Shown here: in pieces, positions 24,895-39,400 of the stretch | How positions within the stretch are numbered: position 1 is the first letter of the stretch | How the letters are laid out: every line of letters begins with the position of its first letter | Assembly (NCBI GenBank): GCA_050008715.1 | Contig: JBEKMC010000004.1 | Coordinates: forward strand, 3,011-67,010 | Length of the DNA: 64,000 nt | Direction of reading: 5' to 3' | Origin: Acidimicrobiales bacterium | GTDB lineage: Bacteria; Actinomycetota; Acidimicrobiia; Acidimicrobiales; Bog-793 | Program-made: the position numbers and the translations under genes | Notes under the pieces: generated by a model | Told to the model about the DNA's origin: nothing | What the model saw: the letters and a program-made list of their open reading frames with translations, nothing else | Databases searched by the model: none

Positions 24895-26091
24895 GTGCCG
24901 CGCTTGATCGCTCTGTGCCTGCCAGGCGGGCCCGCCTTCGTCGAGCAGCTGCGACGCGCCTGGGATTCCGGCGACGCCGTCCTGCCCGTCGACCTCCGCC
25001 TGGCACCGCCGGCCCGCGAGCGGTTGCTCAGCGCCCTCAGGCCGGCCTGTTGGGTCGGCCCCGACGGGATCGCCACGCCGCTCGCTGGAGCCGAGCCCGT
25101 CGAGGGGGGCGATGCCCTCGTCATGGCGACGAGCGGCAGTACCGGTGAACCGAAGGGCGTCGTGCTGACGCACGAGGCCGTCGAGGCGTCCGCGCGTGCG
25201 ACGAGCCGGCGCCTGGCGGTGGACGCCGGCACCGACGCCTGGTGGGCCTGCCTGCCGCTGTCCCACGTCGGCGGCTTGTCCGTCGTGACGAGGTCCTTGA
25301 CCGAGGGCGTGCGGTGTGACGTCGTGGAGGGTTTCTCGGAGGAAGGGGCCCTAGCGGCCCTCAAGGGCGGCGCCACGCTCACGTCGCTCGTGCCCACGGC
25401 GCTGTGGCGCCTCCCCTCGGCAGTGGCCGACCGCTTCCGCCATATCGTGCTCGGCGGGCAGGCACCACCTGCTGTGCTGCCGCCGAACGTCGTCACGACC
25501 TACGGCCTCACCGAGACGGGGAGCGGCCTCGTCTACGACGGTCGCCCGATCGACGGGGCCGAGCTCCGCATCGTCGGTGGCGAGATCCACGTGCGCGGCC
25601 CGATGCTGCTGCGCTGCTACCGGGACGGGCGCGACCCGAAGGACGGGGAGGGGTGGTTCGCCACGGGCGATGGCGGCGAGATGCGGCCGGACGGGTCGCT
25701 CTCGGTGCTCGGGCGGATGAGCGAGATGATCATCAGCGGAGGCGAGAACATCTGGCCGGCGGCCGTCGAGGCCGTGATCGCCCGCCACCCGGCGGTGGCC
25801 GACGTAGCCGTGGGCGGTGTGCCCGATCCTGAGTGGGGCGAGCGCGTCGTCGCCTACGTCGTCCTCGAGGAGAAGGGATCGCGCGAGGGGCCTTTGCTCG
25901 GGCAGCTCCGAGCGCTCGTGATGAGCGAGATCGCCGGCTACGCGGCGCCCCGTGAGGTCGTGCTCGTGGAGGCCATCGAGCGAACGGCACTCGGCAAGGT
26001 TCAGCGGGAGCGGCTCGGCGCCTCCGAGGGCGAATCGCCCCGCCGACCGACGCCCAGCGGACCGACGTCGCGGGGGCCGACGCCCCGCTGA
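24895..26091 (+). CDS. menE: o-succinylbenzoate--CoA ligase
   Basis: 398 aa, short adenylate-forming enzyme with an AMP-binding motif ([17 protein letters not shown]). It sits among men genes. The last ~30 codons (Pro/Arg/Ser-rich) overlap the convergent mftF-like ORF. Confidence 0.85.
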
Positions 26092-27752
26092 CCGAGGCGG
26101 GGCAGCACGGCGCGCAGGCTGCGATGGCGCAGGCACCCGGCCCAAAGGCCGGCACCGTAGGCGAGGTCGTCGAGCGCCCCGAGTCCGAGGGCCGCCGCCA
26201 GGCTGCAGGTCGCCGGCTCGCCGGATCCGCCCCGGGCGGGAGGCGCCGCGCCGGCGGCAGGCTCGCCGGATCCGCCCCAGGCGGGAGGTGCCGCGCCGGC
26301 GGCGACGCGGCGCGCACCCCACCATGGCGGCACATGGCCTGCCACTTCCGCCGCGAGCAGAGCCCCGGCGATCGGGCGGCGCCACCCGGGCACGAGCCCT
26401 GCCGCCGCCAGGGCGGGCGGCCACCACGCTCGTCGCAGAGCCGAAGCGATGCCCGCGAGGTTCCCGAGCTCGGCGATCGCGAGCGTGGCAACCGCATCGG
26501 CGCCGGCGGAGGCGACACCGACCTGTCGAAGCTTCGAGCGTAGGGCGCGAGCGGGCACGGCCGTGGCGAGGAGGGACAGGGGGACCCTGTACCGAAGCCG
26601 GCCGAAGGGGAGGATCAACGCCAGCACGGCCGTGACGGCCCACGAGTTGCCCTCGAACGGAGCAACCGTTCCAGGATGGCGGCGCTCGAGGGCGGCGGCG
26701 GAGGATCCGTAGCGGCATCGCTGCCGGAGGAACGAGACGACGTCCGGGCGGCTGTCGTGACGGACGACCGACCGGGGCTCGTAACGCACCCGCCAACCCG
26801 CCGCCTCCAGGCGCCGGAGCAGATCGACGTCCTCGCCCACGGTGAGGCCGTCGTCGAACCACCCGATGTCGTCAAGGGCGGTCGCCCGGCACAGGAGCGC
26901 CGCCGTCGGCACGAAGGACAGGCGGCGGTGGGCGCCCACGAGTCCCGGCTCCGGGCCTAAGTCGAGCGGTGAGCTGACGGACTCGTAGCCCGCCAGGCGG
27001 CCGTGCCCGACCGCCCGGACTCGCGGCGCCACGGCACCGAGACGGCCGTCCTCGAAATGGGCGAGCAGCTTTCCGAGCCAACCCGGCTCTCCGACGGCGT
27101 CTGCATCGAGAAACGCCACGAGGGGACTCGAGACGAAGGTGCGGGCGGCGTTTCGGGCCGAAGCCGGTCCGCCTGGGCTGGACTTGCGCACGAGCACGGC
27201 GCCGGCTGCGGCCGCAACGGAGTGCAGGCGGACGGAGCTGTCATCCGCAGATCCGTCGTCGACGACCACGACGGGTCCGGCGAACTCCGCCCGCAGCTGC
27301 GCGAGCAGGCGGGCGACGGTGCGATCGTCGTCGCGCACGGGCACGACCACGGTGACCTCGTCGACAGCGGCGCTGCGGGCGGCCGGCAGCGGATGCAGGA
27401 GGCCGCCGGCGGTAAGGCGCGCCACGAGTGCGGTCGCCGCCGGACCCTCAGAGCGCCCGGCGGAGCGCTCGCCAGCGGAGAGCTCGCCGCCGGCGAGATC
27501 GTCCCCGCAGAGATCGTCCCCGCAGAGATCGTCCCCGCAGAGATCGTCCCCGCAGAGATCGTCGAGGACGGCGACGCCCGCGGGGCTCAGCCGTAGGAGG
27601 CGGAAAGGCTCGCCTCCGAGCAGCACCCTGCCAGCGGGCCCGAGCCGGCGGACGCGTCGGTCGAGCACGTATCGCCGCGTGGTGCCGGCCTTGTCGGTCG
27701 AACCGGCCCTGTCAGTCGAAGACGAGGACGCCCCGCACGTTCTTGCCGTCAC
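26001..27752 (-). CDS. mftF: Mycofactocin-system glycosyltransferase (MftF-like, GT2)
   Basis: The N-terminal RRYVLDRRVRRLGPAGRVLLGGEPFRLLRLSPAG is typical of MftF as I recall it. A GT2 core (VVVPVRDD...VVVVDDGSADDS...FLDADA...GEDVDL) and a C-terminal membrane region follow. The start is uncertain: GTG 27752 overlaps the ADH by 41 nt, and GTG 27668 is the alternative. Confidence 0.8.
   Translation of the reverse strand: MTARTCGASSSSTDRAGSTDKAGTTRRYVLDRRVRRLGPAGRVLLGGEPFRLLRLSPAGVAVLDDLCGDDLCGDDLCGDDLCGDDLAGGELSAGERSAGRSEGPAATALVARLTAGGLLHPLPAARSAAVDEVTVVVPVRDDDRTVARLLAQLRAEFAGPVVVVDDGSADDSSVRLHSVAAAAGAVLVRKSSPGGPASARNAARTFVSSPLVAFLDADAVGEPGWLGKLLAHFEDGRLGAVAPRVRAVGHGRLAGYESVSSPLDLGPEPGLVGAHRRLSFVPTAALLCRATALDDIGWFDDGLTVGEDVDLLRRLEAAGWRVRYEPRSVVRHDSRPDVVSFLRQRCRYGSSAAALERRHPGTVAPFEGNSWAVTAVLALILPFGRLRYRVPLSLLATAVPARALRSKLRQVGVASAGADAVATLAIAELGNLAGIASALRRAWWPPALAAAGLVPGWRRPIAGALLAAEVAGHVPPWWGARRVAAGAAPPAWGGSGEPAAGAAPPARGGSGEPATCSLAAALGLGALDDLAYGAGLWAGCLRHRSLRAVLPRLGQRGVGPRDVGPLGVGRRGDSPSEAPSRSR
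26215..26304. repeat. 45-nt tandem repeat x2 inside mftF
   Basis: ggctcgccggatccgccccgggcgggaggcgccgcgccggcggca is followed by a near-identical copy. It encodes AAGAAPPA(W/R)GGSGEP twice. Confidence 0.85.
27495..27565. repeat. 15-nt tandem repeat x4.7 inside the mftF 5' region
   Basis: gagatcgtccccgca occurs four times plus a partial copy. It encodes DDLCG x4 followed by DDLAG. Confidence 0.9.
27685..27720. repeat. 18-nt tandem repeat x2 spanning the ADH stop codon
   Basis: ccggccttgtcggtcgaa / ccggccctgtcagtcgaa. On the minus strand this reads TTCGACTGACAGGGCCGG TTCGACCGACAAGGCCGG, that is, F-D-stop duplicated as F-D-R. Confidence 0.8.
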
Positions 27753-38900: not shown

Positions 38901-39249
38901 TGGCGGTCTCGGCCGCAGCGGCGGTCGGGGCGGCGGCCGTTCCTGCCGTACCAGTGACGGGGCGGCGGCGAACGACGTCGCTCGACGCCAAGGAGGCAAG
39001 GGCGCGCACGAGGGACGGTCGACGCTCGGGAGCGACGCCGAGCGCGGCCATGGAGGCGGTGACGGAATCGTGGCCTGCGAGCTCGCCGACGAGGTGAACG
39101 AGCTCGGTGGAGCGCAGGAACGTCAGACGGCGGTTGCCGTAGTGATACGCAAGTGCGCCAAACGGCTCTGGGCGAATTGCGACGTCCGGATGGAGCTCGT
39201 ACGGGCGTGCCGGGTCGAAACCCGTCTCAGTAGACGCCGCACATCCCAT
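38890..39249 (-). CDS. mftB: Mycofactocin biosynthesis chaperone (peptide-binding RRE protein)
   Basis: 119 aa. GFDPARPYELHPDVAIRPEPFGALAYHYGNRRLTFLRS closely resembles mycobacterial MftB as I recall it. It overlaps mftA by 23 nt and mftC by 11 nt. Confidence 0.85.
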   Translation of the reverse strand: MGCAASTETGFDPARPYELHPDVAIRPEPFGALAYHYGNRRLTFLRSTELVHLVGELAGHDSVTASMAALGVAPERRPSLVRALASLASSDVVRRRPVTGTAGTAAAPTAAAAETANAC

Positions 39250-39400
39250 CGATCGAGATCTCCTCGACGAGCAATTCGTCCTCGACGAGCTCCTCGCCGG
39301 CGGGGCTGGCGTCGGCGGGCCTGGCGTCGGGACGACGCTCGGTCAGCACGTCGGACGGCTCGGGCTGGGGTGGTGAAGAGACGGTCTCGGTGAGCGTCAT
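39227..39400 (-). CDS. mftA: Mycofactocin precursor peptide
   Basis: 57 aa: MTLTETVSSPPQPEPSDVLTERRPDARPADASPAGEELVEDELLVEEISIDGMCGVY. The C-terminal IDGMCGVY is the hallmark MftA core. ATG is preceded by GGAG 7 nt upstream. The longer track ORF (39227..39670) was rejected. Confidence 0.9.
   Translation of the reverse strand: MTLTETVSSPPQPEPSDVLTERRPDARPADASPAGEELVEDELLVEEISIDGMCGVY

Follow-up and report, generated by a model that had tools for sequence, protein, structure and literature searches.

The stretch analysed here, a 64,000-nt window of contig JBEKMC010000004.1 from Acidimicrobiales bacterium assembly GCA_050008715.1, carries on its minus strand, at 26001-39400, a mycofactocin (mft) locus of 12 genes in the order mftA-mftB-mftC-OYE1-OYE2-etfA-fixC-like-fixX-like-etfB-SDR-ADH-mftF. 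We identify this locus as a new member of an already curated and widespread class of mycofactocin loci, the OYE/electron transfer flavoprotein (ETF) type, and by its sequence it appears intact and functional. The reading that we favour, with a probability of roughly 0.6, is that of an OYE/ETF-type mycofactocin operon whose redox module (two FadH/OYE flavoenzymes, a dedicated ETF and FixC- and FixX-like proteins, here FixCX) links the cofactor to the quinone pool. The genes are listed below, each with its NCBIfam model, score and curated cutoff in bits.

39227..39400, minus strand: mftA, mycofactocin precursor with a long leader, 57 aa (TIGR03969, 44.9 against 25)
38890..39249, minus strand: mftB, precursor-binding chaperone, 119 aa (TIGR03967, 100.5 against 33)
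37743..38900, minus strand: mftC, radical SAM/SPASM maturase, 385 aa (TIGR03962, 565.7 against 265)
35698..37746, minus strand: OYE1, mycofactocin-system FadH/OYE family oxidoreductase 1, FMN/[4Fe-4S]/FAD-type, 682 aa (TIGR03996, 665.9 against 627.9)
33632..35701, minus strand: OYE2, mycofactocin-system FadH/OYE family oxidoreductase 2, 689 aa (TIGR03997, 916.9 against 793)
32562..33635, minus strand: etfA, mycofactocin-associated electron transfer flavoprotein alpha subunit, 357 aa (NF038209, 343.9 against 240)
31258..32565, minus strand: FixC-like FAD-dependent oxidoreductase (ETF:quinone oxidoreductase-like), 435 aa (NF007450, 329.7, below the cutoff of 466)
30954..31211, minus strand: FixX-like 4Fe-4S ferredoxin, 85 aa (NF011993 FixX, 53.1, below the cutoff of 166)
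29776..30957, minus strand: etfB, mycofactocin-associated electron transfer flavoprotein beta subunit, 393 aa (TIGR04503, 246.2 against 200)
28958..29779, minus strand: mycofactocin-coupled SDR, 273 aa (TIGR04504, 327.8 against 250)
27712..28824, minus strand: NDMA-dependent (nicotinoprotein) Zn alcohol dehydrogenase (ADH), 370 aa (TIGR03989, 553.4 against 440)
26001..27752, minus strand: mftF, mycofactocin glycosyltransferase, 583 aa (TIGR03965, 335.7 against 280)

Gene identities were based on NCBIfam profile scans, in which bit scores were read against the curated cutoffs, and on Pfam scans of further open reading frames (ORFs). At the ~70% G+C of the window, gene calling by third-position GC (GC3) left sense and antisense frames inseparable, and profile matches were used instead, together with the gene calls of L001, a 20-kb contig of the same species (GCA_964591435.1) with an identical SDR and the gene order of the window. 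Ten of the 12 genes exceeded the curated cutoff of a specific model. The FixC-like and FixX-like genes fell below; the FixC-like protein also stayed under the cutoff of the FixC model NF007542 (311.6 bits), and its copy in L001 carries PF26311 ETF-QO_FixC_C. MftA ends in IDGMCGVY* (39227-39253), so that the Gly-Val-Tyr core ending is present, and L001 likewise has a 57-aa mftA, called with PF23709. MftC shows the CNLSCVHC motif and a SPASM-type tail; its start was set by the L001 gene call, the ORF running upstream to 38999. The TIGR03989 ADH family was itself defined along with the mycofactocin system (PMC3023750). A first-pass annotation made from the letters alone had assigned the named genes of this locus, all correctly and at the right minus-strand positions. 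Since six junctions (mftC/OYE1, OYE1/OYE2, OYE2/etfA, etfA/fixC, fixX/etfB and etfB/SDR) overlap by 4 nt, the arrangement fits a single, tightly packed operon.

The redox module is a known companion of mft genes and not a new insertion, since the families TIGR03996, TIGR03997, NF038209 and TIGR04503 are curated as mycofactocin-associated and the same arrangement is annotated by PGAP, which names the module genes on the plasmid of Streptomyces NBC_00564 and most of them on that of Streptomyces SAT1. The first-pass annotation had placed the module in the position of the missing genes; read as a novel substitution, this framing does not survive these annotations. The window order from mftA through etfB is shared with the NBC_00564 plasmid (NZ_CP107787.1), the SAT1 plasmid (NZ_CP016083.1) and Actinobacteria bacterium IMCC26207, none of which has mftD or mftG in the locus, and OYE2 of loci of these types is 66-69% identical to that of the window. 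All three have a GT2/MftF-type glycosyltransferase; in NBC_00564 it precedes mftR, and in SAT1, where it is called mftF, mftE follows it. The full PGAP order in NBC_00564 is glycosyltransferase, mftR, mftA, mftB, mftC, OYE1, OYE2, etfA, FAD oxidoreductase, 4Fe-4S protein, etfB, mftE. Two differences were observed: mftE is kept directly after etfB in NBC_00564 and IMCC26207 and after mftF in SAT1, and a regulator lies upstream in NBC_00564 (mftR) and SAT1 (a generic TetR gene), whereas the window has neither mftE nor a regulator.

Compared with the canonical mftR-mftABCDEF-mftG arrangement (Mycobacterium, Tsukamurella NZ_LR134465.1, Streptomyces NBC_00080), MftA, MftB, MftC and MftF are orthologous, the window MftC being 60-68% identical to plasmid-borne bacterial MftC, and both kinds of locus draw on the same nicotinoprotein client families, SDR and ADH. 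In contrast, canonical loci have MftD directly after MftC, plus MftE, MftG and MftR, and no ETF/FixCX, while the window has none of these four and six redox genes instead.

These absences were examined by tblastn against the six frames of the 64 kb, with PGAP-annotated MftD (two), MftE (two), MftR, MftG, MftM and a TetR as queries, drawn from canonical loci on Tsukamurella, Mycolicibacterium chubuense and Streptomyces plasmids; an IMCC26207 creatininase-family protein served as third MftE probe. What was covered amounts to 64,000 of ~71,218 bp of one contig of a metagenome-assembled genome (MAG). The organism is uncultured and represented only by fragmented assemblies; its OYE2 is 100% identical to a protein of an Acidimicrobiales bacterium MAG. 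For MftD, MftE, MftR, MftG, MftM and TetR only noise was obtained in the 64 kb (best E = 0.36). Specifically, neither annotated MftD query matched (best E = 1.2) and no scanned ORF matched the NCBIfam MftD model (TIGR03966), the three MftE (TIGR03964) queries gave nothing better than E = 0.36, and none of the other candidate ORFs of the window matched MftD, MftE or MftR in the NCBIfam and Pfam scans. The first-pass annotation had reported mftD, mftE and mftR as missing from the window, in agreement with these searches, and had rightly left two options open, genes located elsewhere or another route. A remnant of mftE at the etfB/SDR junction was considered and excluded, the two genes overlapping by 4 nt (29776-29779).

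We then compared the locus with its relatives. With an OYE2 alignment as query, at least 586 stretches matched in species-representative genomes, and 80 loci were taken from them. Nearly all come from Acidimicrobiia MAGs and one from the isolate Amycolatopsis xylanica; IMCC26207, also an isolate, was added from outside this search. Coverage was complete downstream for 52 loci, upstream for 60 and on both sides for 17, and the best OYE2 match was 81% identical. Within 10 kb, neither MftD nor MftG was found in any of the 80 loci. The ETF and FixCX genes lay downstream of OYE2 in 40-43 of the 52 downstream-complete loci, with the FixC-like gene between etfA and etfB in 42 and the FixX-like gene kept in 40. 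As MftD is found in 0/80 surveyed loci, its absence from the locus, together with that of mftG, is a trait of the whole class.

The history of mftE is different. It sits directly after etfB, between etfB and mftF, in 14 of the 17 fully covered loci, and the three without it (L006, L008 and L009) are the nearest relatives of the window (OYE2 73-81% identical) and share its order etfB-SDR-ADH-mftF; a further locus, L070, has etfB-mftE-SDR-ADH. The missing mftE is thus a recent loss or relocation from the locus, specific to the subclade of the window. The missing mftR is subclade-specific as well: the window, L001, L006, L008 and L009 all carry SDR and ADH after etfB, with neither mftE nor a regulator.

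Upstream of OYE2, neither mftC nor OYE1 was present in 24 of the 60 upstream-complete loci. Several Ilumatobacteraceae loci, including L043, L044, L066, L069, L073, L074 and L079, show OYE2, sometimes with etfA, and no other mft gene within 10 kb; the 5.26-Mb chromosome OZ257157.1 is among them. Such a pattern would arise from scattering of mft genes in these genomes or from an additional role of OYE2 outside the mycofactocin system. Three loci (L013, L014 and L081) are titled 'MAG: Bifidobacterium breve' or 'Bifidobacterium sp.'; the tblastn identities of their mft and OYE2 proteins to those of the window closely match those of the IMCC26207 locus, and the titles look like binning or labelling errors in public records.

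Plasmids of cultured strains provided a second sample, 12 of which carry mftC. Four (Tsukamurella, M. chubuense, Streptomyces NBC_00080 and Thermomicrobium roseum) carry a true MftD, with an identity to the query of 62% or more, and six others, all Streptomyces and none with a close MftD, carry a close OYE2. The two sets are thus disjoint: the 10 bacterial mftC plasmids comprise six with OYE2, four with MftD and no overlap, and the haloarchaeal ones have neither. NBC_00080 carries mftR, mftG and mftA-F. The two OYE2 plasmids inspected among the six, SAT1 and NBC_00564, hold mftABC, OYE1, OYE2, ETF, FixCX, mftE and the glycosyltransferase. From the plasmid data alone, {OYE1, OYE2, ETF, FixCX} seemed to have replaced {MftD, MftG}. 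On the T. roseum megaplasmid (NC_011961.1, L096), mftA, mftB, mftC and mftF lie on one strand and ADH, mftD and ADH on the other, with no mftE annotated within 9 kb; this is a cultured case of MftD with no nearby mftE.

A first alternative is that the pathway of this organism is fully canonical, with ordinary mftD, mftE and perhaps mftR elsewhere in the genome and the OYE/ETF module as an accessory. Relocation of mft genes is hard to dismiss because split arrangements are frequent in the class, as illustrated by the 24/60 loci above, and mftD of T. roseum lies outside the mftABCF unit, separated by an ADH gene. In addition, the genome is a MAG seen through a single contig, and the presence of mftE in 14/17 complete relatives makes its relocation in the subclade plausible. 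Nevertheless, MftD was within 10 kb in none of the 80 related loci, and the six complete Streptomyces plasmids with mftC and OYE2 include none with a close MftD; the two inspected also hold mftA, mftB, mftE and the glycosyltransferase. MftD, where present, is normally co-clustered, and complete-genome surveys found species lacking it (PMC3023750); in L086, L088 and L095 it adjoins mftC. The table of the MftM paper covers mftC, mftM and mdo, and not mftD. As to mftE, two homologue searches gave no copy on contigs of the subclade, a weak argument as both were saturated by closer relatives; their nearest matches all sat within mft loci. On this balance, we consider a split locus a possible explanation, if a rather unlikely one.

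Reciprocally, we retrieved 80 metagenome loci with an alignment of MftD. None of them contained etfA, etfB, fixC or fixX. One, however, L109 (Ga0208247_10008, a 545-kb metagenome contig, 7500-20200), carries mftM, mftR, mftB, mftC, MftD, OYE1, SDR, OYE2, MftE, MftF and MftG, with MftD (728 bits), OYE1 (1190, TIGR03996), OYE2 (1006, TIGR03997) and MftG (785) all well above equivalog cutoffs; L112 is a truncated copy of this type of locus. It is a mycobacterial-type mft operon which, like the window, has true OYE1 and OYE2, and which differs by having MftD, MftE, MftG, MftR and MftM and no ETF/FixCX. True OYE1 and OYE2 can thus share an operon with MftD and MftG, and a strict rule of 'OYE2 or MftD, never both' was overturned. 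Since L109 has true OYE1/OYE2 beside MftD, MftE and MftG, the OYE pair cannot be read simply as a substitute for MftD, and the idea raised in the first-pass annotation, that the FMN-binding OYE domains could replace MftD, is weakened. What alternates with MftG is ETF/FixCX and not the OYE pair: ETF/FixCX and MftG were found together in neither sample.

The sequences of the OYE pair bear on the same question. OYE1 and OYE2 belong to the three-domain FMN/[4Fe-4S]/FAD-type family; among proteins of known structure they come closest to 2-naphthoyl-CoA reductase, FadH, histamine dehydrogenase and trimethylamine dehydrogenase. Histamine dehydrogenase and 2-naphthoyl-CoA reductase aligned with OYE2 over its entire C-terminal half, and FadH only over the FAD domain, not the NADPH domain. 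In an alignment of 83 OYE2 sequences, the four cluster cysteines ([4Fe-4S] Cys-x2-Cys-x3-Cys-x11-Cys) and the motif ELQCSHSSIV were invariant (83/83), and the segment DExGFHxATS, at the position of the FadH NADPH loop, contained no glycine-rich NAD(P)H motif; OYE2 hence does not look NADPH-dependent. The window OYE1 also keeps its four cluster cysteines. As at least one is lost, mostly to Ser, in ~7 of 41 OYE1 relatives and never in OYE2, the sequences suggest that OYE1 may be a diverging partner subunit.

A second alternative would give the MftD step to this pair: in ETF-type loci OYE2, probably with OYE1, would behave as an ETF-coupled amine dehydrogenase, oxidatively deaminating AHDP to premycofactocin, with ETF and FixCX rather than oxygen receiving the electrons. 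This would agree with the absence of MftD from the 80 OYE2-seeded loci, with the disjoint sets of six OYE2 and four MftD plasmids, and with the homology of OYE2 to histamine and trimethylamine dehydrogenases (PDB 3k30 and 1djn), which share with it the three-domain FMN/[4Fe-4S]/ADP-type organisation, the four cluster cysteines, an aligned His and the lack of an NAD(P)H loop. In the alignment, the invariant His173 of OYE2 falls at the 'AH' histidine of histamine dehydrogenase, a residue that we take to belong to the active site; FadH has Glu there, 2-naphthoyl-CoA reductase Ile and OYE1 Gln. Moreover, trimethylamine dehydrogenase passes its electrons to ETF, and ETF genes adjoin the OYE pair in the window. 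The only OYE2 found beside MftD, that of L109, has ELQASQSSIV, with Gln for the His that ETF-type OYE2 keeps in 83/83; this contrast rests on a single MftD-type sequence and is a lead, not evidence.

Other features speak against such a substitution. The coexistence of the pair with MftD in L109 implies that its ancestral role was something else. Unlike amine dehydrogenases, OYE1 and OYE2 lack the Cys for 6-S-cysteinyl FMN: histamine dehydrogenase has Cys in 'PHC' at the aligned position, which is Leu in OYE2 (SAHLTN, 83/83), Val in the window OYE1 (GPHVTN) and Glu or Val in most OYE1 relatives. Finally, by total score OYE2 is as close to reductases (2-naphthoyl-CoA reductase, 239 bits; FadH, 228) as to histamine dehydrogenase (210), so overall similarity to the amine dehydrogenases is no higher than to the reductases. 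We hold replacement of MftD by the OYE pair to be unlikely.

Returning to the favoured reading, in which the module connects mycofactocin with the quinone pool, MftB and MftC would act on the Val-Tyr C-terminus of MftA, decarboxylating and cyclising it, and MftF would glycosylate the product. With alcohols or carbonyl compounds as substrates, the SDR and ADH would supply the cofactor with electrons, and OYE1/OYE2, as Fe-S flavoproteins, with the dedicated ETF and the FixCX-like ETF:quinone oxidoreductase, would then chain the mycofactocin pool to menaquinone. Such a chain would be the functional counterpart of MftG, a glucose-methanol-choline (GMC)-family oxidoreductase not present in these loci. 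In its make-up the module resembles FixABCX and the ETF plus ETF:quinone oxidoreductase systems, in that the genes for its EtfA and EtfB homologues enclose those for a FixC-like flavoprotein and a FixX-like ferredoxin. Unlike FixABCX, the FixC and FixX proteins are below curated cutoffs, the ETF subunits exceed the cutoff only for mycofactocin-specific models, and there is no link to nitrogen fixation. Core release would probably be performed by MftE encoded elsewhere in the genome or by another peptidase, and oxidative deamination by a gene elsewhere or by a non-orthologous enzyme, possibly the His-bearing OYE2. Loss of MftE would in principle be tolerable, because an M. smegmatis ΔmftE strain still grows on ethanol, with a delay (PMC6529628). 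According to Haft (2011), who built the MftD, MftE and MftR models, these three are not universal, and universality is confined to four components, namely the peptide, MftB, the radical SAM enzyme and the glycosyltransferase (PMC3023750).

Several points weigh against this interpretation. The canonical pathway would stop, if MftD is lacking, at the redox-inactive amine AHDP, a step that the explanation does not cover. The direction of electron flow could also differ, as FixABCX-type complexes can bifurcate electrons and relatives such as 2-naphthoyl-CoA reductase act reductively. The OYE pair occurs with no ETF in L109, so its role may be unrelated to ETF. The exclusivity of ETF/FixCX and MftG was seen within ±10 kb and in samples skewed towards proteins closely related to the seeds, and because split mft loci are common in the class, a gene missing from a locus says little about whether the genome lacks it. 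A literature search found no functional study of mft-linked OYE, ETF or FixCX genes.

Maturation of MftA in the absence of MftD and MftE could also yield another product, such as a peptide-bound form or a glycosylated amine, with the OYE/ETF proteins acting on that or on an unrelated substrate. Other MftD-less arrangements exist (L092, L094 and the haloarchaeal plasmids devoid of both MftD and OYE2), and the leader of the 57-aa MftA is unusually long. However, the GVY end of MftA, MftC and MftF are canonical and well above equivalog cutoffs, and the mycofactocin-coupled SDR and NDMA-type ADH of the operon imply the usual redox-active cofactor, which makes a different end product very unlikely. 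L092 (1363-5392) and L094 (5734-9676), on contigs of 6.6 and 9.9 kb, present a third arrangement, mftA-mftB-mftC-mftE-aldehyde dehydrogenase, with mftE directly after mftC; no MftD, OYE or ETF genes were seen there.

A joint reading would have ETF-type systems, in Acidimicrobiia and on some Streptomyces plasmids, lack MftD and MftG genome-wide, the His-bearing OYE2 with OYE1, ETF and FixCX doing both jobs, namely O2-independent deamination of AHDP to the redox-active keto-amide and re-oxidation of mycofactocinol to the menaquinone pool. We regard this as an improbable combination.

We also observed features of the operon and its surroundings outside this argument. Thirteen tandem-repeat rows lie between 26036 and 39330, in mftF, etfB, etfA, OYE2 and the mftA leader, with periods all multiples of 3 (12-45 nt), an unusually high density for one operon. 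The rows checked fall within coding sequence, with peptide units such as CGDDL x4 (MftF), QRLESA x5 (EtfA) and GELPQW (EtfB). In-frame repeats were located at 27495-27563 and 26215-26303 in MftF and at 29885-29962 in EtfB, whose C-terminal extension is repeat-rich. Housekeeping genes flank the locus: menE, menB, menA and menD lie to one side, and beyond the opposite end come a DUF255 thioredoxin-domain protein, dnaE and type IV pilus genes. A functional tie between the menaquinone genes and the mft locus was considered and dropped: the adjacency recurred only in L006, L008 and L009, which is subclade synteny.

Elsewhere in the window, an ATP-grasp-type ligase (6911-8281, plus strand) is followed by a radical SAM protein (8212-9687, plus strand) that scored 466 bits, just under the cutoff of 500, against NF040546, 'CUAEP/CCAEP-tail radical SAM (seleno)protein'; its C-terminus reads CCAEP, with Cys in place of Sec. 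A choice-of-anchor D domain protein (42489-43976, plus strand) and an amino acid permease (13357-15063, plus strand) have a first-position GC of 0.51-0.54 against ~0.75 elsewhere, and sit in the lowest-GC stretches of the window.

Mycofactocin biochemistry has been worked out almost solely in mycobacteria, where MftD makes the redox-active centre and MftG returns electrons to respiration (for MftG, PMC11778925). About 25% of MftC-bearing genomes lack MftG, and the authors of the MftG study describe its replacement there as an open issue (PMC11778925). A large class of loci with neither MftD nor MftG nearby carries an ETF/FixCX chain; it is common in uncultured Acidimicrobiia and occurs also on plasmids of cultured Streptomyces. 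The window adds to it one member and a subclade that lacks mftE in the locus. The biochemical question is general to the class, and cultured Streptomyces or IMCC26207 are better suited to it than this MAG. For the MftG-less genomes, the module described here is an obvious candidate for the MftG replacement.

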